Part shown: positions 16,307 to 24,522 of the stretch, piece after piece | Layout: every line of letters begins with the position of its first letter | Numbering within the stretch: the stretch's first letter is position 1 | IMG/VR virus record: IMGVR_UViG_3300042540_000801 | Coordinates: 1-50,441 of that record | Reading direction: 5' to 3' (one strand) | Source: a virus | Taxonomy: Duplodnaviria > Caudoviricetes | DNA: 50,441 nt | The notes under the pieces: model-generated | What the model was told of the DNA's origin: nothing | Databases searched by the model: none | The model's input: only the letters and a program-made list of their open reading frames with translations | Translations under genes and position numbers: made by a program

Positions 16307-17695
16307 TCAGGTGGCGGCGGCGGCCTTGAGGGCGACCATCGGGCCGGCGACCGTGTTGGAGCCGAGGTCGTGCACCACGATCGCGTTGCGGACCGTGGCG
16401 AACGTGGCCGTCTGGTCGAACTCGATGTAGCGCTCGCTCGCCGTCTTGATCGTGACCGTGCGGCGGTCGCCGTAGGTCGCGGCTTGCGAGAGGTCTCCGA
16501 ACAGGGCGAGGCACCTGCCGCCGGTCCCCGTCAGGTCGCTTACCATCGGGTGCGCGAGGACCACGGGGAAACCGAGGAACTGGAGGTCGAAACCCCCGGC
16601 GACGTCGGCCCGCGTGTTGCCGCCGCTCTGCATGGCGAGCCGCAGCATCGAGGAGCCGTAGCCGGCGGGCGAGATGTACCACTTGGCCTGACGGCGGGCG
16701 AAGAGGGGAAGCCGGCTCACGACGTTCGTGAAGTCGGTCAGCTCGAGCGAGTCGAAGGTCGAGTTGCCCGTTGCCGCCGTGACGACCGACTTGGCGTAGC
16801 CCGAAGACAGGATCTTCGTGCAGATGCCGGTCACCGAGTGGTAGGTGCCGGTGCCGTCGCCGATGAAGCCCGCGTTGTCCACGGCTTCGGCGAGGCACTG
16901 GGCCGTCTCGACGGCGATGAGGTCGGCCAGGTTGATGACCGAGTCCTCGAACAGCGAGTTGGGGATGCGGTTTGCCACGCCCCAAATCTTCGCGTTGAGC
17001 TGCACGTTGTCGAAGGTCACGTCTGAGGGCGTGATCTCGACGTTCTCGCCGACCGGGCGAGCCGCGAGACCGCCGGTGCGGCGGGCGATGAGGAGCGTGT
17101 CGCTCGACATCGGCACCTTCCGGGCGTTCGCGACGAACGCACCGTACTCCTCCACGAGCCGGATGATCTCGGTGGAGAGCTCGTCGCTGACGAGGTAGCC
17201 GCCGAGCGAGTCGGTGCTGCCCGCCTGCGCGCGGGTCTGGACGCCGTGGTCGACGCACCACCGGCGGGCTTCGGCGTCGCCGAAGACGTAGCCGCGGAGG
17301 TGCATGCCCGAGCGGTAGGCCCGCTCTTCGGCGTTCGGGCCACGGAACGCCTTGAGGACGCCGGTGGCCTTGGGGATGGCGTAGTTGCGGGGTTCCACGG
17401 CGGGCTCCTCCTTGGTGGCGGGTGCGACGGTCTTGGCGGGGGCGGGGGCGGCCCGCTCGAGGACGGCCCGCAGTTCCTTCTCCTTCTCGGCGGCGCGCTC
17501 GTAGAAGGCGATCTTCGACTTGAGCTTCTCGGCCCGCTCGATGAGCTGCTCGAGCCGCTCGGAGTTCTGCATCGCCTCGTCGGCCGCGGCGCCGTCTTCG
17601 GCCGGAGCATCGGTCGCGCCGTCTTCGAGGGCGCCCATCTCGGCGAGGACCTTGGCGAGCTCGTCGAGCAGAACCTTGACTTGCGATGCAGCCAC
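16307..17695 (-). CDS. Major capsid protein, HK97 fold, with N-terminal delta domain
   Basis: GTG start after AAGGAG; coiled-coil N-terminus; GGYLV, GDGTG, LFGDLS motifs. Confidence 0.92.
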   Translation of the reverse strand: MAASQVKVLLDELAKVLAEMGALEDGATDAPAEDGAAADEAMQNSERLEQLIERAEKLKSKIAFYERAAEKEKELRAVLERAAPAPAKTVAPATKEEPAVEPRNYAIPKATGVLKAFRGPNAEERAYRSGMHLRGYVFGDAEARRWCVDHGVQTRAQAGSTDSLGGYLVSDELSTEIIRLVEEYGAFVANARKVPMSSDTLLIARRTGGLAARPVGENVEITPSDVTFDNVQLNAKIWGVANRIPNSLFEDSVINLADLIAVETAQCLAEAVDNAGFIGDGTGTYHSVTGICTKILSSGYAKSVVTAATGNSTFDSLELTDFTNVVSRLPLFARRQAKWYISPAGYGSSMLRLAMQSGGNTRADVAGGFDLQFLGFPVVLAHPMVSDLTGTGGRCLALFGDLSQAATYGDRRTVTIKTASERYIEFDQTATFATVRNAIVVHDLGSNTVAGPMVALKAAAAT

Positions 17696-17798: not shown

Positions 17799-17975
17799 CT
17801 ATCTAGTAAAGCACCGCCGCCGGATCTCCGAGGCGGGGATGACGGACTTGTCCGTCGCGCCGCACCGCGGGCAGCGCAGGTATCGCACCTGGCTGTCGCC
17901 GCGGCTCTGGCTGGAAACGACACCGAGGACGCCGCGCCTGCACGCGGCACAGGTGTCACCCGATTTTGCGGCCAT
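17799..17975 (-). CDS. Small zinc-ribbon protein (Ogr/Delta-like pattern)
   Basis: CAAC...V.SS......RYLRCPRCG. Confidence 0.65.
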   Translation of the reverse strand: MAAKSGDTCAACRRGVLGVVSSQSRGDSQVRYLRCPRCGATDKSVIPASEIRRRCFTR

Positions 17976-18987
17976 GCTGTTGGAGGAACTTTCGGATGTC
18001 GGCCATGTGCCGACGAGCGACGATGAGGCGACTGGTCGCCAACTGCCGGCCGGCGACGTGCTGCTCGTAACTGCGGCGGGCCACGCCGACGTCTGCGTCG
18101 GGGTACGCGGGGAACGTGACCGGCCCGACATCCAGCAGGCGGTCGATCCGCTTCACGATTCTGGTGGAGCGGCCTTCTTCGACCGTCCACTCTTCCCCGC
18201 CTTTTGCGATGGTGAACGCGAAACTTGAGCCACGGATGTCGCCTCTCCTGATGCTCTCGACGACGCCCTGCTGCGAGACTGGGGGCAGGACTTCGTAGCG
18301 GAGGCCGCGATCGTCGACGAAGAGCTTGAGCGTGGTCGGGTAGCGGCCGAGGACCACGTTGGGGTCGTGGTTGAACAGGGCGCGGGTCTCGAGCGGGACG
18401 CGGCGGCCACGCCGCTCGGACACCAGGCCGAAGGCGGTCGGGTCGATCCGCTCCACGAAGTCTCCGAGGTCGAGGCTGCGGACGCCGAACCGTGCCGCGT
18501 AGCCGACGATCCAATCGCGTTCGGTCTCGTCGCCGTTCTCGTCGCACTCGCAGCGGCGTTCGACGGTGAGGAGGTCGGTGGCCGTCTCCGCTTCGTCGAT
18601 GACAAGAGAGCGTCGCTCGATCTGCATGGCGTGACTCCTTTCGCCGTTGTCTGCAGCTTCCATCTGCCGGACCAGTTTCTTGGCCCACGACCAACCGGGA
18701 TCTCCGCCCCACAAGGCCCAGGCGATTCTCCCGGCGGATGGGAAGCCGTCTTCGCCGGGGGACCAGCCTTGTCCCTGCTTGTCGACTTCGTGGCGGTCGA
18801 AATAGGCCTTCATCCGCTTGGCAGTTGATGGGCTGATCTGCGTGCCGTTGCCGAGGTCGCGGGCGCGGGCCACGCCCACGGCGGTGCCGCCGCGGTTGAA
18901 CTCTTTGCGCCAGGCCAGACCGCGATCCGCTTCCTTGCGGACGCCGGCCGGCGGCGTGAAGTCGATGTGATCGTATTTCCCTGCCAT
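17956..18987 (-). CDS. HK97-type prohead protease with extra N-terminal domain
   Basis: GYAA.F, F.ERI...AF, LFNHD, GSSFAF, DVGPVTFPAY. Confidence 0.9.
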   Translation of the reverse strand: MAGKYDHIDFTPPAGVRKEADRGLAWRKEFNRGGTAVGVARARDLGNGTQISPSTAKRMKAYFDRHEVDKQGQGWSPGEDGFPSAGRIAWALWGGDPGWSWAKKLVRQMEAADNGERSHAMQIERRSLVIDEAETATDLLTVERRCECDENGDETERDWIVGYAARFGVRSLDLGDFVERIDPTAFGLVSERRGRRVPLETRALFNHDPNVVLGRYPTTLKLFVDDRGLRYEVLPPVSQQGVVESIRRGDIRGSSFAFTIAKGGEEWTVEEGRSTRIVKRIDRLLDVGPVTFPAYPDADVGVARRSYEQHVAGRQLATSRLIVARRHMADIRKFLQQHGRKIG

Positions 18988-19052: not shown

Positions 19053-19295
19053 TCAGGGCGACGGCGGCGGGGGAGGAGGCGGCGAACTGGCGGTTGCTTC
19101 CTTCTCGGCGGCGACGGCCTGCCGGTAGGCTTCGTCGGGATCGACGCCGGCCAGGAGCAGGCGGGCCAGTTCCCGCATGCCGATGGAGCTTTTGAGGTCG
19201 CGGCGCCACTCGGCCAGGCCCTCCTCGCCAAACTTGACGACGCGGATGCCGGCCGCCGTGTCGACGTCTTGCTTGTCTTGTTCTTCTGGGGTCAT
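19053..19295 (-). CDS. Small hypothetical protein downstream of the effector polyprotein
   Basis: ATGA overlap with upstream stop; 80 aa. Confidence 0.6.
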   Translation of the reverse strand: MTPEEQDKQDVDTAAGIRVVKFGEEGLAEWRRDLKSSIGMRELARLLLAGVDPDEAYRQAVAAEKEATASSPPPPPPPSP

Positions 19296-21991
19296 GGATG
19301 CCACCCGATGTGCTCGAGGTCGACGAACAGCCGCGGCTTGCCGCTGATCCATCTCCATTCTTTCGATTTCAGGCGGAATTGCGAGCGGCGGGGGAGGAGG
19401 ACTTCGGCTTCGCTCTTGTGGGCGCTGATGCCTTGGATGTTGAGGCCGTACTTTGTCGTGATACGCATGGCGATGCCGGGGGCTTCTTTGTTGCCGGAAC
19501 TCCATGACTCGCCCATGTCGCGACGGGTGGAGCAGGACAGGTATCCCGTGTCCTGCCAGACGGCTCCGACAGCGAGCTTGTCGATCTGCGTGGCGACGCT
19601 GTGGCCGACGCCGCGGTAGAGGGTTTTCGTTTCGCTGTGCGCGGCGATGCGGGTGACGGCGTCGAGGGCGGCCACCTTGAGCGCGACGTGCTGCGGCATC
19701 TTGCCAAGTTCCGAGATGCTGCCGCCCGTGTTGGATTCGTACTGCCGCAATAGGTTGTTGATCTCTTTGTAGTGTGAGCCGGTGTACTGCTGGATGGCCT
19801 CCCTGGCGATTGGCATGGCCTTGATCGCGGCGGCTTGCACTTCGAGCACGGGCGGGTTGGGGACCGTGTGCTGCCAACTGTCTGGCGAGTTGGTTGGCAG
19901 CTTACCCGGTGGCGGCTTGCCGGGCGTGGCGCTGGCTCCGGCCTTCGTCGGCTCGGGCTGGACGGCGGGGGCGTCCTTGTCCGCGACGGGCTTGGGCGGC
20001 TCCTGCGGCTTGGGCGTGGACTTGGGTGCTTCCGGCGGCGGGTTGACCTTGTTGACGCCCGAGACGTTGGCGTTGGCGCCGGGCGGCGGAGGAGCGAGCA
20101 GGCCGGCGGCCATCGCCTTCTCGCCCGCGTAGATGCCGGGATCGTTCTTGAGCGCGGTCGGCGATCCGATGTTGTCGGGGTGGATGGGGTCGATGCTGTA
20201 CTGCGTGCAGAGGGCATTGAAGCTGTTGGGCGTTCCGGCGGTCTTCTCGCTGATGGCGTTCTTGAGCGTTTGCTGGGCGGCCGACTTGGCGGTCTTGGCG
20301 CTGGAGCCTTCGGTCTTGAACTTGGCGACCAGCACGCCGTAGAGCTTGGCGTGGGCGACCGTCATCATGAGGTCCTTGGGGTAGCCCTTCTTCTCCATCC
20401 AGGCACCGGCTTTCTTGCCGCTGCCGAGGGTGGCCGCGGCGTCGCCGGCGCCGCCCTTGGCGCAGGTGTTCGCCTCGCCGAAGCCGCCGGATCCCGTGCC
20501 GCAGTTGCGGGTCTCGAGCGATCGCTTGCTCTTCTTGGGATCGACCTGATCGGCGACAACCATGTAGACGCCTTCTTTGCTTTGCGTCACTGACACCACC
20601 TTGAAACTGGCTCGCCGAGTGATGTATTCCGGCTGGCTGGCTCCCTCGGAGATGTCGCGGGCGTCGACGAGCCGCGTGCGGATGATGATGCCAGTGCCGC
20701 CCGTGCCGGTTTCGTTGGGGTCCGCGTATTGCATGGCGGTCCCCTTGCTGCCGAAGGATGAGACGCCTTTGATGTTGAAGGACTCTTGCTTGATGAACGC
20801 GTCGGCGGCGTTGTTGTCGAGGATCATGCCGCGGTAGGCGAGGCCGTCGTATCGCGGCATCTTGGCGAGGGCCGATAGCAGCGCGGGGCTGGCCTTGCCT
20901 TGCTCGTCGAGTTCACGGTGCGGGGTGGCGTCGTTGGTCCAGTCCCCGATCGCGTTTTCTTCTTCGCGGGTCAGGGGGCCGGAAGCGGAAGGCCACCGGT
21001 CGCCGTCGTCGGTGCTGCCGTCGCCGCCGGCGCACTTGTTGCCCGGCTTGAATCCGCCGGCGCCGCTTCCGCAGTCGCGGGCCTCGGAGCGGGCGTCGCC
21101 GTTCTTCTTGGCCCAGGCCGCCATGTAGTCGAGCCGCGCCTTCATCGTGTCGCGGTGCTTGGCCGGGGTGGCGGCGAGGATGGCCTTGCGCCGCTTCTCA
21201 AGGCCGCCGATCTGCTTGGCGACGTCGGCATCCGAGAGCTTGCCGAAGATCGGCTTGCCTTGGTCGCTCGTCCGCATGGAGGTGATCTCGCCGACTTCCG
21301 GGCCGAACGCCTTGGGCTTGCCCTGCGCGCGGAAGTCGAGGGAGCCGCCATTGTCGATCCGCATGGGCGGGCGGCCGTCTGACGGGACGACGATGTTGTC
21401 GCGGGCCAGGCCGATGACGTCCCAGTTGGCGAGCAGGGCGTCGGCGGCGAAGTTTTCGCGGAGCGAGGCCGCGGCCTTCTCGAAGTCGCTGCCGCGGAGC
21501 TTGTCGAGGGTCGGGCCGGGGACATACTCGGTGACCTGCACCGGCTTACTGCCGGACTCGTCGAGGCGATGAGCCGGAACCGGGGCGCCGGCCGCGCGGT
21601 AGATGTCGTTGGCGGCCGACTCGCTGCGGACGTGCTCGGAGGAGTTGCCGCCCTTGATGACGAACTGGTTGCCGTTCTTGTCCTCGGCCAGCATCGCCCC
21701 GGTGGAGCCGCCGAGCCGCTTGGTGACCTTGAGCTCGCTGGCCGGCGGGATGTCGCCCTGTTTCTTGCCGCCGGGGGCATCGCCGCCGTCGCCGTCGCCG
21801 CCGGCCGCGCACTTGTTGCCGGGCTTGAAGCCGCCCGCTCCGCTGCCGCAGTCGCGGTAGGCGGCGAGCATGTCGCGGCGCTTGACCCGCTGCCGCTTCT
21901 TGAGGGCGTCGAGGATGTGCTGCGGCTTCTGCCAGCCGGGAGGAGCGAGCGAGGCTTCGGAGCCGACGAACTTGTCGAGGTTGGCGGTCAT
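19292..21991 (-). CDS. Multidomain effector: HipA/PI3K-like kinase, two VIP2-like ADP-ribosyltransferases and an unknown domain
   Basis: LGGSTGA..VIK..E..NWD..DN..IDNG; AYRG/SSFGS/QPE; LYRG/SCST/EAEVLL; three CGxGxGGF..xNxC tags. Confidence 0.8.
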   Translation of the reverse strand: MTANLDKFVGSEASLAPPGWQKPQHILDALKKRQRVKRRDMLAAYRDCGSGAGGFKPGNKCAAGGDGDGGDAPGGKKQGDIPPASELKVTKRLGGSTGAMLAEDKNGNQFVIKGGNSSEHVRSESAANDIYRAAGAPVPAHRLDESGSKPVQVTEYVPGPTLDKLRGSDFEKAAASLRENFAADALLANWDVIGLARDNIVVPSDGRPPMRIDNGGSLDFRAQGKPKAFGPEVGEITSMRTSDQGKPIFGKLSDADVAKQIGGLEKRRKAILAATPAKHRDTMKARLDYMAAWAKKNGDARSEARDCGSGAGGFKPGNKCAGGDGSTDDGDRWPSASGPLTREEENAIGDWTNDATPHRELDEQGKASPALLSALAKMPRYDGLAYRGMILDNNAADAFIKQESFNIKGVSSFGSKGTAMQYADPNETGTGGTGIIIRTRLVDARDISEGASQPEYITRRASFKVVSVTQSKEGVYMVVADQVDPKKSKRSLETRNCGTGSGGFGEANTCAKGGAGDAAATLGSGKKAGAWMEKKGYPKDLMMTVAHAKLYGVLVAKFKTEGSSAKTAKSAAQQTLKNAISEKTAGTPNSFNALCTQYSIDPIHPDNIGSPTALKNDPGIYAGEKAMAAGLLAPPPPGANANVSGVNKVNPPPEAPKSTPKPQEPPKPVADKDAPAVQPEPTKAGASATPGKPPPGKLPTNSPDSWQHTVPNPPVLEVQAAAIKAMPIAREAIQQYTGSHYKEINNLLRQYESNTGGSISELGKMPQHVALKVAALDAVTRIAAHSETKTLYRGVGHSVATQIDKLAVGAVWQDTGYLSCSTRRDMGESWSSGNKEAPGIAMRITTKYGLNIQGISAHKSEAEVLLPRRSQFRLKSKEWRWISGKPRLFVDLEHIGWHP

Positions 21992-24522
21992 GCGTTTTTG
22001 TAGTCCTCGTCTTCGTCCACGTAGAGGAACCACTTGGTGCTAGTCTTCACGGCCCGCGTGATCCGCATCTTCGACGGCGGGCGGATGACTTCGCTCTCGT
22101 CCAGGCTGTCGCGGTGGTTGACGTAGCCGACCCGCGGCGCGCGGGAGACGAGCACGACGCCCTTGTTGAACTCGCTGCCGCCGCTGAAACTGCCGGCCGT
22201 GCGGCGGGAGGTGGTCCAGCTGTTGACGCCGCTGTGCGACACGTAGCCGTCCTTGAGCAGGGCGTCGACGGCGTCGTCGTTGAGCTTGAGCCCGCGGTAG
22301 AGCTGCATGCAGCAGCCGAGCGTCGAGGCGGCCGTGCCGGCTTCGAGGACCTTGGTCATTTCGCGGATGGCGTCCTCGCGGGCCGATTCCCGCATCTGGT
22401 CGTATTCCTCTTCGATCTCTTGGGTGCGATCGGCGATCCACTCTTGCTTGACCTCTTCCTGCTCGTCTGGGGTGAGCGAATCCCACTTGTCGTTGTAGTA
22501 GTCGACTTTGTCGACGCCGTCCCACTCGCTTTCGAGCTCGTCGACTTTCTCGTTGATGAGTTGCCGCTCGGTCTCGGAGTCGATGGTCCCGTACTCCGTG
22601 CCATAGGAGTCGATGACGTCGCCGTCGGTGCCGCCGCCGCTGACGGACTCGGTGAAGTAGGCGTAGCCGTCGCCGGTGTAGGCGAGCAGCGCGCCTTCGT
22701 CGTCGGAGAGGTCGGCGTGGTCCTGCAGTTCCTTGGCGTCGCTGAAGTCGGTGACGAGCCCGCGGTCTTTGCCGTCGCCCTCGACTTCGTCGAGGTAGGT
22801 CTGGGCGTCGGTGACGCTCCGGTCGGTGACGACGATCTCGCCGCCGCCGCTCTGGACGGTCTTGGACTGCCCCTCTTCGTCGTCGCGGGCCGTGCCGGGG
22901 GAGGTCGGATCTGGCTCGCTGTCGTCGCCGCCGTCGCCGTCGTCCCCGGCGCACTTGTTGCCGGGCTTGAAGCCGCCGGCGCCAGTGCCGCAGTCGCGGG
23001 ATTCGGCGCGGGCGGCGGGTGGCGATTGGGGAGCCTGGGGCTCGCCAGGAGGGCCGCCCGGGCCGGGGCCTGGGTCATTTGTCGGGCCTTCCGGTGCGGC
23101 CCCAGGGGGCTCGCCAGGGGCTCCCGGGTGGGGCTGGGCGGGGGTGACGCCGGCCACGATGGCGGTGGCGGTGGTGCGAGGCATGGCTGGGAAGACGCTG
23201 CCGATGATCGACACGGCGGCGTCCGGGGCCACCGTCCCGGCGCCGACCTGTTCGAGGATGGCCAGCAGGCCGCCGACGTCGGCCGTGGGCTGGGCGGGCT
23301 GCTCGGCCGTGGGCTGCTCGGCGGCCTGCGGGTCGGGCTGCGGCTTGGACGCGTTGGTGAGCGTCTGCATGTTGAGCTGCACGAACCGCTCGTCGCCACC
23401 TTCGACGGGGTTGAGGTTCTCCCAGCCGCGGATCTCGTTCACGCTGGCGACGCCGAGCGAGGCGAGCGTGCTGTAGTAGCTCGCCCGGGCGCTGGCGTCG
23501 CCGCGGAGCATGCCCCGCGTGTCGAACTCGGCGAAGATGTTGTCGTCGGTGATGAGGTCGCGAGTGAACGCGGTTTCGAACCGGCGGAGCCAGCCGAGCA
23601 GGGTGTGCTGGATGAAGTCCAGGCTTTGCTGTTCGATGTTCGAGAATGACGAGCGCGTAAGGTCGCCCACGAGATGCGGCGGAACGCGAAAGATGCGGCA
23701 GATCTCTTCAGTCTGGAACCGGCGGCTTTCGAGGAACTGGCTCTCCTGATTCGAGGCGCCGCCGAGCTCGACGGGCTTGAGGCCGCCGCTGAGGACCGCC
23801 GTGCGGTTGGCCCGGTCGCTGCCGCGGTGCATCCGCTCCCAGTTGTCTCGGAGGGCGACGGCCGCCTGCTGGTCGAGCTCGTTGTCCGTGGTGAGGACGA
23901 AGCCGGGGCGGGCGCCGTTCGCGAAGAAGCTCGACCCGTGGATCTCGCAGGCGCGGGCCAGGGCGATGGCGTCGCGGGCCAGTTCGATCGGAACCATGCC
24001 CAGAACGCCGTCGTTGCTCAGCCACCGCAGGTGCATGATCTGGTCTTGCGTGTAGACCGTCTGCGACCCGTTCGGCTCGCGGTAGGTGTAGCGGAGCCGG
24101 CCGTTTTCCAGCCGCTCGCAGGCCATCCGCGAGGGGTGCAGGGGGATGAGGGCCGACACCGCGCCGCGCTTCCCGGCCCGGATTTCGTTGTAGGCGTTGC
24201 CGTGCAGGCCGAGGTGCAGCATCTGCTGCTCCCGCCACTCGAAGCTCGTCTGCCAATCGTTCGGGGCGACGTGGAGGACGTGGTAGAGCGGATGCTCGCG
24301 GGCGATCTCCTTGCCGCCGTCCGGCCGCCGGCGGTAGAGGTGGAGCGGGAGCCCGGCGACGCCCTCGGCCAGGACGCGGAGGCAGCCGAGGACCACGGTG
24401 CAGCGGAGGGCGGTGTCGGCGTTGACCCTGACCCCGGCCGCCGTGCGGCCCGAGAGGTCGTCATCCAAGGATCGGGTCTCGACGTCGCCGGGGAGCCAGA
24501 GGATGCGGTTGGGGGCGATCAT
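21988..24522 (-). CDS. HK97-family portal protein with C-terminal ADP-ribosyltransferase extension
   Basis: LHGNAY, FFANGARP, FRVPPHLVG, SNIEQQ, NEIR.WENL.P; then Pro linker, tag, LYRG/SWTTS/ESEVI. Confidence 0.9.
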   Translation of the reverse strand: MIAPNRILWLPGDVETRSLDDDLSGRTAAGVRVNADTALRCTVVLGCLRVLAEGVAGLPLHLYRRRPDGGKEIAREHPLYHVLHVAPNDWQTSFEWREQQMLHLGLHGNAYNEIRAGKRGAVSALIPLHPSRMACERLENGRLRYTYREPNGSQTVYTQDQIMHLRWLSNDGVLGMVPIELARDAIALARACEIHGSSFFANGARPGFVLTTDNELDQQAAVALRDNWERMHRGSDRANRTAVLSGGLKPVELGGASNQESQFLESRRFQTEEICRIFRVPPHLVGDLTRSSFSNIEQQSLDFIQHTLLGWLRRFETAFTRDLITDDNIFAEFDTRGMLRGDASARASYYSTLASLGVASVNEIRGWENLNPVEGGDERFVQLNMQTLTNASKPQPDPQAAEQPTAEQPAQPTADVGGLLAILEQVGAGTVAPDAAVSIIGSVFPAMPRTTATAIVAGVTPAQPHPGAPGEPPGAAPEGPTNDPGPGPGGPPGEPQAPQSPPAARAESRDCGTGAGGFKPGNKCAGDDGDGGDDSEPDPTSPGTARDDEEGQSKTVQSGGGEIVVTDRSVTDAQTYLDEVEGDGKDRGLVTDFSDAKELQDHADLSDDEGALLAYTGDGYAYFTESVSGGGTDGDVIDSYGTEYGTIDSETERQLINEKVDELESEWDGVDKVDYYNDKWDSLTPDEQEEVKQEWIADRTQEIEEEYDQMRESAREDAIREMTKVLEAGTAASTLGCCMQLYRGLKLNDDAVDALLKDGYVSHSGVNSWTTSRRTAGSFSGGSEFNKGVVLVSRAPRVGYVNHRDSLDESEVIRPPSKMRITRAVKTSTKWFLYVDEDEDYKNA

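Follow-up and report, generated by a model that had tools for sequence, protein, structure and literature searches.

A near-invariant peptide, present in four copies in the 50,441-nucleotide stretch of Caudoviricetes DNA analyzed here (the window), lies strictly between domains, with N-terminal polarity, in a large family of proteins that this and hundreds of uncultured phages seem to pack into the capsid, joined to the portal or encoded beside it. It is interchangeable with a cassette that lacks cysteines, and it marks the breakpoint at which modules are gained, lost or exchanged. The explanation that we favor, at roughly even odds (a probability of about 0.5), is that this tag is a portable junction cassette of head-packaged "polyvalent" effectors, in which, in HK97-type phages, the S78 prohead protease would cut after a basic residue at position -2 and the conserved block would act in cis.

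A 17-aa tag, written here as R-(D/N)-CGxGxGGFxxxNxC-A, had been described four times in the earlier note on this DNA. One copy comes behind the portal domain and the other three belong to the following gene; all are present, on the minus strand:

22948..22998, minus strand: tag P, RDCGTGAGGFKPGNKCA, joining the portal domain to the C-terminal cargo extension (aa 568-584 of a 903-aa ORF)
21806..21856, minus strand: tag 1 of the second gene, RDCGSGAGGFKPGNKCA, 45 aa past the likely start codon, with a candidate kinase-like module next
21029..21079, minus strand: tag 2 of the second gene, RDCGSGAGGFKPGNKCA, with an ART-like module next
20459..20509, minus strand: tag 3 of the second gene, RNCGTGSGGFGEANTCA, followed by the last region, which has an ADP-ribosyltransferase domain at its end

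A degenerate DNA pattern for C-G-x-G-x-G-G-F-x3-N-x-C matched the window four times, always on the minus strand, and gave no match in any of 100 dinucleotide-preserving shuffles; no fifth copy was found across the 50,441-bp virus record. Independently, a repeat finder placed the four tags in the region's largest family of direct repeats (D1, 95 nt, 60-83% identity). As had been noticed, each copy is directly preceded by Arg (AESR, AAYR, SEAR, LETR); a stretch rich in Gly and Asp comes next, beyond which the sequences are unrelated. Tags 1 and 2 encode the same 17-aa peptide with six synonymous and no non-synonymous codon differences, and the portal tag differs from either of them by three synonymous codons and one non-synonymous codon. 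These synonymous differences, together with retention of the peptide across contigs with differing DNA, bear out the proposal of selection at the protein level. Recent duplication of whole modules was rejected as the source of the four copies, because the module following the portal tag hardly resembles the one following tag 2 (39% identity over a 28-aa stretch only, next to tags that are 16/17 identical).

The tags are embedded in a head gene cluster with the order TerS, TerL, portal-tag-cargo, polyvalent gene, S78 protease and capsid, of which the following features are relevant here:

21988..24522, minus strand: portal gene, 844 aa from M60, a form that is on record
24472..24483, minus strand: VETR codons in the N-terminal region of the portal, a look-alike site
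19292..21991, minus strand: polyvalent cargo gene (899 aa), whose ATG overlaps the portal stop (ATGA)
17956..18987, minus strand: prohead protease gene, with an N-terminal extra domain, IERR-SL and Peptidase_S78 (PF04586, 1.9e-30)
16307..17695, minus strand: major capsid protein with delta domain (Phage_capsid PF05065), with start codon and ribosome-binding site
17231..17242, minus strand: VQTR codons, by alignment the putative P4-P1 of the capsid maturation site

The 903-aa portal ORF matches Phage_portal (PF04860, 6.5e-107) at aa 102-428 as well as TIGR01537. In the gene product, a Pro-rich linker connects the HK97-type portal domain to the tag, and an acidic linker connects the tag to a C-terminal module. 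The polyvalent gene encodes, in order, a leader, tag, kinase-like module, tag, ART-like module, tag, middle region, Pro-rich linker and ADP-ribosyltransferase, the last of which is an ADPrib_exo_Tox domain (Pfam, 3.7e-14). The kinase-like assignment is a lead only, from HipA_2 and PI3_PI4-kinase clusters at 0.90-0.93, and the second module is called ART-like from YRG...SSFGS read by eye. With these two taken as the lead and the by-eye reading that they are, the second gene combines at least two unrelated effector domains with a head-gene neighborhood, as is typical of polyvalent head proteins. The tag itself is covered by no model in Pfam (E<=0.1) or NCBIfam (E<=1) searches of the window proteins.

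The earlier note had suggested building a profile of the tag and listing the neighboring domains across phages. A profile made from 122 copies was searched against 1.84 billion proteins and matched 733 cluster representatives at E<=1e-3 (119 at E<=1e-10), with up to 6-7 tag stretches in a single protein. The strict DNA pattern of the tag matched at least 119 IMG/VR stretches, and 139 tags were counted in 122 ORF segments. In consensus the tag reads [N/D]-C-G-T-G-A-G-G-F-[Q/K]-P-G-N-T-C-A, with a Gly-rich spacer behind it, and eight positions are invariant across the 122 sequences. Conservation sets in abruptly at the N/D that precedes the first Cys, and the block extends from position -1 to +19, where it merges into the Gly-rich stretch. 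Both Cys are invariant, at a fixed C-x12-C spacing, in every tag of two samples that were both chosen by a pattern demanding both Cys. AlphaFold2 modeling of the isolated tag with the 122 sequences returned no secondary structure, at a mean pLDDT of 64. None of the papers searched contains the motif strings, and the motif seems to be undescribed so far.

Among cultured phages, tblastn with a 39-aa tag segment gave no match at E<=10, for which low-complexity masking is probably to blame, and tblastn with the polyvalent protein of the window (P0002) and with P0005 recovered cargo domains and no tag. The 95-nt repeat unit gave short blastn matches, the best of them in "minor capsid proteins" of two Rhodobacter phages. 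The one that was translated, RcRudolph, was rejected as a tag because both Cys are absent from its GNGAGGF. These searches thus turned up no cultured phage that bears the tag, although a prophage region of Singulisphaera acidiphila DSM 18658 contains a match to the pattern.

The proposal was to be given up if tags in homologues proved not to be associated with domain boundaries. None of 173 tags lay inside any of 141 Pfam envelopes in 102 proteins, where random placement expects 54.9 +/- 5.7 (minimum 35 in 2000 trials), and the boundary test therefore fails to refute it. A portal domain is found in 57 of 99 de-duplicated tag ORFs (24 Phage_portal, 23 Phage_portal_2 and 10 Portal_Mu), and in 66/66 cases with such a domain every tag is C-terminal of it. 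Four ORFs have the S78 protease and then the tag, one of them (L051) running on into a zeta-toxin domain, and other tag-bearing proteins carry MuF. The modules that follow include ADP-ribosyltransferase, zeta-toxin, GNAT and others, homologues having 2-6 modules, and 27 of the 99 ORFs have no Pfam match. The tag had been said to precede each module, and the distances agree: of 140 proteins, 50 have their first tag no more than 60 aa from the N-terminus, whereas a tag within 40 aa of the C-terminus is seen in 6, and tags are spaced at a median of 289 aa.

Iyer, Burroughs, Anand, de Souza and Aravind (2017; PMC5512222) described polyvalent proteins as multi-module effectors among head genes, predicted to be packaged and injected. 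The tag proteins resemble them in head-gene location, in fusion to portal or MuF and in cargo (ART-PolyVal, GNAT, 2H, RelA/SpoT and topoisomerase). For many of them it proposes that a zincin-like MPTase domain carries out the processing, whereas the tag proteins have a discrete junction peptide, and no MPTase-PolyVal match was found in the window proteins (Pfam E<=0.1) or in 151 related proteins, among which L066 gave one weak match to the zincin-type ATLF. The main text of PMC5512222 has no mention of a junction motif by the words searched, and its supplement might list one; by the same kind of search, none appears in the main text of the paper on MuF polymorphic toxins (Jamet et al. 2017; PMC5576092).

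The suggestion that DNA copies of the tag could allow module shuffling can be seen directly in two pairs of homologues. The polyvalent protein of the window and P0061 are 66-71% identical and exactly one tag-plus-module unit apart, P0061 lacking tag 2 and the ART-like module, with breakpoints in the tags. In L086 and L058 (387/813 identical), the Cys tag and FYDPSQxRDxxGKW, respectively, stand at the same three junctions. More generally, a Cys-free motif FDPxQPRDxxGRW stands in for the tag at homologous junctions, and P0151 and P0102 have hybrid cassettes, which read SRSADCG-RDxxGRF-xxGNxC. The two Cys, which the earlier note had treated as part of the signal, are thus not essential to the cassette. 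What the two motifs have in common is a core of Gly-[G/R/K]-[F/W].

Such breakpoints inside cassettes, and the occurrence of the same cargo families (ART-PolyVal, ADPrib_exo_Tox, zeta toxin) behind tags in different head lineages, could be explained if the cassette were a recombination linker only, persisting as a homology patch for module exchange, much as pre-toxin motifs do in polymorphic toxins, with no biochemical role. We regard this as quite improbable. Homologous recombination needs DNA identity, and conservation at the level of the peptide, through synonymous changes and on contigs of different DNA, therefore speaks against it, as do the eight invariant positions.

The Cys-free motif also bears on the idea of a metal or disulfide clasp, in which the Cys of two tags would share Zn (a zinc hook or clasp), or form an intramolecular disulfide in the extracellular virion, so that tagged cargo is tethered to a tagged portal, protease or MuF. 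If the partner were a metal or another tag, invariance across unrelated head lineages would be explained; the C-x12-C spacing, within the pattern-chosen samples, points the same way, and the window and loci L043 and L078 carry tags both on the portal and on separate neighboring ORFs. However, a motif without Cys takes the place of the tag at homologous junctions, most loci have a single tag by the strict pattern, and each tag offers two ligands only: it has two Cys and no conserved His, where a zinc ribbon or knuckle has four ligands per unit. The tag profile also matched no chain among PDB sequences (E<=10). A clasp is accordingly a decidedly unlikely account of the tag.

Arg directly before the tag, taken in the earlier note as part of it, turned out to be specific to a lineage and not universal. 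Family-wide, K or R is at position -2 in only 116 of 297 tags; it is found in 32/34 tags of loci with an HK97-type portal, including all four of the window, and in 3/4 fusions to S78 protease, but in 0/19 tags of lambda-type and 0/9 of Mu-type portal loci. Part of this pattern may come from shared ancestry within lineages and not from protease specificity. In HK97-capsid loci, five tags have G at -1 and A or T in place of K or R at -2 (SAG and KTG forms), and D is at -2 in L051, L066 and L112.

The likeness of the sites before the tags to the delta boundary of the capsid protein, pointed out earlier, is upheld in the HK97-type loci, where the residue at -2 is mostly basic, often with E or Q at -4, and agrees with the R or K of the capsid boundary. 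All 23 of 23 capsid proteins from HK97-type tag loci have R or K at or beside the boundary column before A-x-x-E-G-x-N-S-x-G-G. In an alignment with the HK97 record (NC_002167), this column falls within 1-2 residues of the cleavage position of gp5, which we take to lie between K103 and S104, and VQTR-A of the window capsid is by this alignment positionally equivalent to the HK97 gp5 maturation site. The S78 protease is present in nine HK97-type tag loci, in the four fusions and in the window. The putative sites before the tags therefore look like what an S78 substrate would present, a basic P1 resembling the maturation site of the capsid protein itself, although the putative P1' is D or N at the tags, where capsid proteins have S or A (A in those of the tag loci), and cleavage at the tag is itself putative. 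The three look-alike strings listed earlier, VETR-SL (portal aa 73-78), IERR-SL (protease ORF aa 197-202) and VQTR-A (capsid aa 152-156), are all present.

In lambda- and Mu-type tag loci no protease family was found by Pfam, PHROGs or hhalign. The ORF between the portal and capsid genes of these loci has no Pfam or PHROG family and an hhalign probability of 0.1 against S78; a language-model search with it returned S78, S77 and S80 clusters at 0.88-0.91, which is a lead.

A junction that breaks itself would work in any head lineage. The N or D before the first Cys would cyclize and break the N/D-C bond with no protease, and the Asp-Pro bond that starts the Cys-free motif would be an analogous labile bond; the idea is one of chemical analogy, to Asn-dependent cleavage of capsid proteins and at intein C-termini. 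Position -1 is indeed N or D in 276 of 287 unique tags, and the Cys-free motif usually starts with [F/Y]-[D/N]-P. Against this, -1 is G or A in the other 11/287, the Cys-free motif of L122 has D-Q-P and not D-P, and 16 residues are far below any known autoprocessing fold: a Hint or intein fold has at least about 130 aa and the conserved block about 20, and no Hint or intein Pfam match was obtained among window and related proteins. Self-cleavage is highly improbable.

Taking these observations together, the preferred cassette would consist of a few lineage-specific residues, the near-invariant 16-residue block and the flexible Gly-rich spacer, with one cassette ahead of every cargo module. Cargo would either follow, in one fused chain, a carrier that resides in the head (portal, prohead protease or MuF) or be made as a separate product encoded beside the portal gene. 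In HK97-type phages, the S78 prohead protease is predicted to cut after [E/Q]-x-[R/K] and before [D/N]-C, the same kind of site as the capsid delta boundary. Each enzyme module would thereby be set free within the head and, now beginning with the tag, could exit with the DNA. The most probable role of the invariant block is to act in cis on the module that follows, as a processing, retention or exit signal and not as a mere spacer; it may serve in packaging or ejection, as the earlier note had proposed. Several points weigh against this reading: tags just 6-16 residues from a start codon need no separating from anything, an invariant 16-mer far exceeds the needs of a protease site, and no equally conserved partner is evident across the three portal families.

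A cargo-loading or retention peptide, whose block docks on the inside of the procapsid, on the scaffold or on the delta domain, would make any cleavage secondary. Such a peptide, which would be similar to the cargo-loading peptide of encapsulins on its flexible linker, would recruit carrier-less polyvalent proteins and hold freed modules to the shell. The architecture found, a short conserved peptide, a Gly-rich linker and then cargo, is that of such a system; proteins in which Pfam gave no portal, MuF or protease domain often start with a tag after 6-60 residues, multiple tags per protein would supply avidity, and the Gly-[G/R/K]-[F/W] core is typical of a linear motif that binds a pocket. 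Yet an intact tag stands behind 66 portal domains, where recruitment would be superfluous, and the tag is invariant while the capsid, scaffold and portal of the three lineages have no detectable likeness. The C-terminal tail of HK97 gp4, which has a targeting role, also shows no likeness to the tag on comparison. On balance loading is rather unlikely to be the primary role. Similarly doubtful is a broader version of the favored reading, that the cassette, whether Cys-tag, Cys-free or hybrid, is a universal portable "address label" of tailed phages, a short N-terminal peptide sufficient for processing, head retention and delivery of any protein with the DNA into the next host; it would function across HK97-, lambda- and Mu-type heads by reading out a feature that they share.

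Known signals offer partial parallels. The capsid-targeting sequence of T4, found on injected Alt and internal proteins, is cleaved by gp21, with the signal upstream of the cut and removed. The tag is likewise a short peptide beside a putative prohead-protease site on head-packaged proteins, but its conservation begins at -1, downstream of the putative cut, so that the block would stay on the cargo, and it is also internal and repeated. The encapsulin cargo-loading peptide is a Gly-containing peptide on a flexible linker, in a compartment whose shell has the HK97 fold; the tag has the same series of conserved Gly-containing short peptide, flexible linker and cargo, but it has no sequence likeness, is N-terminal to its cargo and is kept on portal fusions, and its binding to a shell is hypothetical. 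Pre-toxin motifs of polymorphic toxins (VENN, PT-TG) are short conserved motifs bordering a variable toxin module. The tag similarly borders variable modules and coincides with the exchange breakpoints described above, and differs in its sequence, in the phage-head delivery, in its repeats within one protein and in its Gly-rich spacer.

To our knowledge, the choice, processing and delivery of internal head proteins are poorly understood in tailed phages other than T4, and polyvalent effector proteins have until now been described by their domains only. A near-invariant junction peptide in hundreds of protein clusters gives a concrete handle on such proteins: it predicts where polyproteins are cut and gives single residues for mutation, it delimits effector modules automatically, many of them without a known family, and it reveals the unit of module exchange between phages. 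If the tag is a sufficient signal, it would be usable for loading proteins into phage capsids, and if the address-label reading is true, it would be to phages what the cargo-loading peptide is to encapsulins, a tool at hand for capsid loading.

The window, an entire IMG/VR virus record (50,441 bp, 97% complete, G+C 60-70%), carries its tag copies on the minus strand, within a head module whose genes are ordered as follows:

first in the head-module order, minus strand: small terminase gene, then large terminase gene
21988-24522, minus strand: portal gene, its HK97-type portal domain (PF04860, 6.5e-107) extended at the C-terminus by about 400 residues
19292-21991, minus strand: second gene, 899 aa, its ATG overlapping the portal stop codon
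after the second gene, minus strand: prohead protease gene, Peptidase_S78 plus an extra N-terminal domain
16307-17695, minus strand: capsid protein gene, HK97 fold with a delta domain
after the capsid gene in the order, minus strand: head-tail connector gene

The four 17-residue copies described in the earlier note were recovered at 22948-22998 in the portal gene (tag P) and at 21806-21856, 21029-21079 and 20459-20509 in the second gene (tags 1, 2 and 3). A degenerate DNA pattern matches exactly four times in the window versus none in 100 shuffles, and a repeat finder ranks the copies as the largest direct-repeat family of the two genes. Each is preceded by Arg and followed by a Gly/Asp-rich stretch and then unrelated sequence, and the reported synonymous divergence is also evident: tags 1 and 2 encode an identical peptide with six synonymous and no other differences. 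Tag P is identical to tag 2 at 16 of 17 positions, though the modules behind them are barely similar. By eye, these two modules look like divergent ADP-ribosyltransferase folds missed by Pfam; a YRG(M/L)xL(D/N)xxAxDAxxK stretch is common to the module behind tag 2 (20789-20837) and the portal C-terminal module (22252-22300).

Lying between the genes for the protease and the capsid protein, a short ORF (17799-17950, minus strand) codes for a peptide of the form CxxC...CxxC (...DTCAACRRG...RCPRCGATDK...), which may be a small zinc-ribbon protein. The extra N-terminal domain of the S78 protease (about 120 aa; 18622-18987, minus strand; MAGKYDHIDF...WSWAKKLVRQ) has no Pfam match at E<=0.01 and meets the protease domain at MQIERR-SL. 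Related proteases also have IE[K/R]R close to the N-terminal boundary of their S78 domain (consensus of alignment A7), so this string may be part of the protease rather than a cleavage site.

The tag family is far more general than the first, sequence-only reading could see. At least 119 IMG/VR stretches match the DNA pattern used on the window (139 tags, 122 distinct reading-frame segments), and a slightly stricter one is matched by 36 stretches of a 185,579-species genome collection, mostly metagenome-assembled genomes, with labels including Planctomycetota, Bacillota, Verrucomicrobiota, Alpha-, Beta- and Gammaproteobacteria, Chloroflexota, Actinomycetota and others. Two pattern matches (L137 and L158) lie on one 23.7-kb contig of a bin labelled 'archaeon'. 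A profile built from the 122 segments and searched against 1.84 billion cluster representatives matched 733 proteins at E<=1e-3, of which 119 reached E<=1e-10 and 10 reached E<=1e-30, with up to 6-7 matched stretches per protein and proteins of up to 4,085 aa. In the 287 unique tags of the best 150 proteins, a conserved block extends from -1 (relative to the first Cys) to about +19, [N/D]-C-G-T-G-A-G-G-F-[Q/K]-P-G-N-T-C-A-x-G-G-G-G, with little conservation upstream. The residue at -1 is N in 199 of these tags, D in 77, G in 10 and A in one; self-cleavage at this N/D|C step is a rival reading of the tag.

Variants occur in particular loci. Seven Mu-type portals (L005, L052, L054, L059, L072, L096, L105) have the core CGNGFGGFTDxNxC, flanked by strongly basic tracts (RRRRKGRK... 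/ ...RKSPRKK) with no Gly-rich spacer behind. Eight loci (L007, L008, L019, L033, L045, L079, L097, L116) have Gly at -1 (...RRPAKMGPSAG-CGTG...) followed by AKEDGIPQ; here the tag lies 50-146 residues into reading frames of 530-840 aa with no Pfam or PHROG family, which in L019, L033, L045, L097 and L116 are directly upstream of an HK97-type capsid gene, the expected place of the protease gene. The scaffold-like 'minor capsid protein' of Rhodobacter phage RcRudolph (L161:5462-6250), whose gene stands between those for portal and capsid, reads GNGAGGF but lacks the cysteines; this likeness to the core may be accidental or a remote trace of it.

The proposed association with domain boundaries was upheld in Pfam scans of 99 de-duplicated tag-bearing reading frames of at least 200 aa and of 52 of the 150 best library proteins; the other 23 of the 122 segments, left out of the scan, were near-duplicates, too short, or the two from the window itself. 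Portal domains are present in 57 of the 99 frames (24 Phage_portal, 23 Phage_portal_2, 10 Portal_Mu), Peptidase_S78 followed by a tag in four, tags ahead of Peptidase_S78_2 in one, MuF in two and only other or weak Pfam matches in eight; the remaining 27 have no Pfam match. The 52 library proteins give the same picture and add GNAT, DRAT, 2H ligase, DUF3626, topoisomerase I, RelA/SpoT, phospholipase A2 and pyridine-nucleotide oxidoreductase as cargo. Unusual cargo includes a pyridine-nucleotide-disulphide oxidoreductase module between tags (P0021) and B12-binding and MeaB-like segments ahead of the tags (P0039). Among the 102 proteins with at least one Pfam match, none of 173 tags overlaps any of 141 Pfam envelopes, versus 54.9 +/- 5.7 overlaps for random placement (minimum 35 in 2,000 trials). 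Every tag in portal-bearing cases is C-terminal of the portal domain (66/66), 50 of 140 proteins have their first tag no more than 60 residues from the N-terminus (often just 6-16 after the start), and six of 140 have one within 40 residues of the C-terminus. Tags are spaced by a median of 289 aa, about the length of one or two domains. The polarity is clear: tags stand in front of modules.

Junctions are also marked by a cysteine-free motif, [F/Y]-[D/N]-P-x-Q-P-R-D-x-x-G-[R/K]-W-[T/S]-x-G-G, again with a Gly-rich spacer behind it; four copies occur in L058 (L058:4773-8804, minus strand) and one in another head-region ORF, L122. In the homologous polyvalent proteins L058 and L086 (387/813 identical in the main alignment), three modules common to both stand behind the Cys-free motif in the former and behind the Cys tag in the latter. 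Of the 150 best tag proteins, at least 14 carry both in interleaved order, e.g. P0004, P0024, P0116 and P0040 (tags at 124, 905 and 1581; Cys-free motif at 543 and 1235), and hybrids in which the tag's cysteine frame encloses the Cys-free core, D-C-G-R-D-x-x-G-R-F-x-x-G-N-x-C, occur three times in P0151 and once in P0102. By swap, interleaving and hybrids, the two motifs form one class of interchangeable cassettes with a common Gly-[G/R/K]-[F/W] core, to whose role the cysteines are not indispensable. A metal or disulfide clasp is a rival reading, and the Cys-free equivalent at homologous junctions argues against a purely metal-based one.

Module shuffling at the tags, suggested earlier, is seen directly in P0061, a homologue of the window's second gene (66-71% identical; aligned to window residues 15-334 and 504-913), which lacks exactly one unit, tag 2 together with the module that follows. 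The only tag of P0061 has the upstream context of tag 2 and the downstream context of tag 3. The same cargo families stand behind tags in different head lineages, and an S78-tag-zeta-toxin fusion (L051) has its counterpart in L070 as two genes, one for a protease that stops shortly after the tag and one for the zeta toxin. The cassette is a unit of module exchange; a rival reading would make it a mere recombination patch. In L028 (6140-8863, minus strand), a unit of a tag plus about 170 aa (CEKNCGTGEGGFQEGNTCARGGGG...) is perfectly duplicated in tandem upstream of a Peptidase_S78_2 (XkdF-type) domain.

The Arg before the tag holds for all four window copies but not for the family, where K/R is at -2 in just 116 of 297 tags. 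It is a feature of the HK97-type lineage: K/R occupies -2 in 32 of 34 tags of HK97-type portal loci (13 also with E/Q at -4) and in three of four S78 fusions, D being the other residue in both, and in none of 19 tags of lambda-type (L, F, E, D, A, S, T) or nine of Mu-type portal loci (G, A, S, D). The capsid proteins of HK97-type tag loci have R/K at or beside the boundary column in 23 of 23 cases, usually as V-E-[S/A]-R, ahead of a conserved A-x-x-E-G-x-N-S-x-G-G. This column aligns within 1-2 residues of the HK97 gp5 cut position, K103|S104, so the residues before HK97-type tags resemble the best-known substrate site of the prohead protease. The window sequences AESR, SEAR and LETR fit the capsid-site pattern well and AAYR at P1 only. 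Exceptions are SAG and KTG forms (G at -1) in five loci with R at the capsid site, and D at -2 in L051, L066 and L112; part of the -2 pattern could come from shared ancestry.

Lambda- and Mu-type tag loci have a capsid protein without a delta domain (phrog_1005) and one ORF that separates the portal gene from the capsid gene; its product is globular in the N-terminal half and coiled-coil in the C-terminal half. Pfam, PHROGs and hhalign placed this ORF in no protease family; a language-model comparison gave S78, S77 and S80 protease clusters at 0.88-0.91, as a lead only.

The tag proteins are polyvalent proteins as in Iyer et al. 2017 (PMC5512222), where portal or MuF effector fusions are described; term searches found no junction peptide in the main text of that article or of a MuF-toxin paper (PMC5576092). 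In the window proteins the tag is outside every Pfam and NCBIfam model, the PDB has no chain with it, and its motif strings were not found in the published text searched. A word-based search of the tag region returned 11 proteins, one of them, unnamed, from NCBI. The nearest functional analogues, polymorphic-toxin pre-toxin junction motifs, the T4 capsid-targeting sequence with its gp21 site, and encapsulin cargo-loading peptides, each differ from the tag in sequence, position or context.

The earlier interpretation was partly right, in the boundary and exchange role, while its Arg is restricted to the HK97-type lineage. With the family, boundary placement, polarity, interchangeability and breakpoints observed here, the tag is most likely a portable junction cassette of head-packaged multi-effector proteins. 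A cargo-loading peptide is a rival reading, against which the block is kept behind portals, where nothing needs recruiting; its invariance across lineages with sequence-unrelated portal, scaffold and capsid proteins argues against a co-evolving protein partner. In HK97-type phages, and in that lineage only, likeness to the capsid site suggests that the S78 protease would cut just before the tag, as the earlier note proposed, which would release each module inside the head with the tag at its new N-terminus. Since the block is intact both at N-termini, where there is nothing to separate, and behind portals, the best fit is a role in cis that all released modules share.
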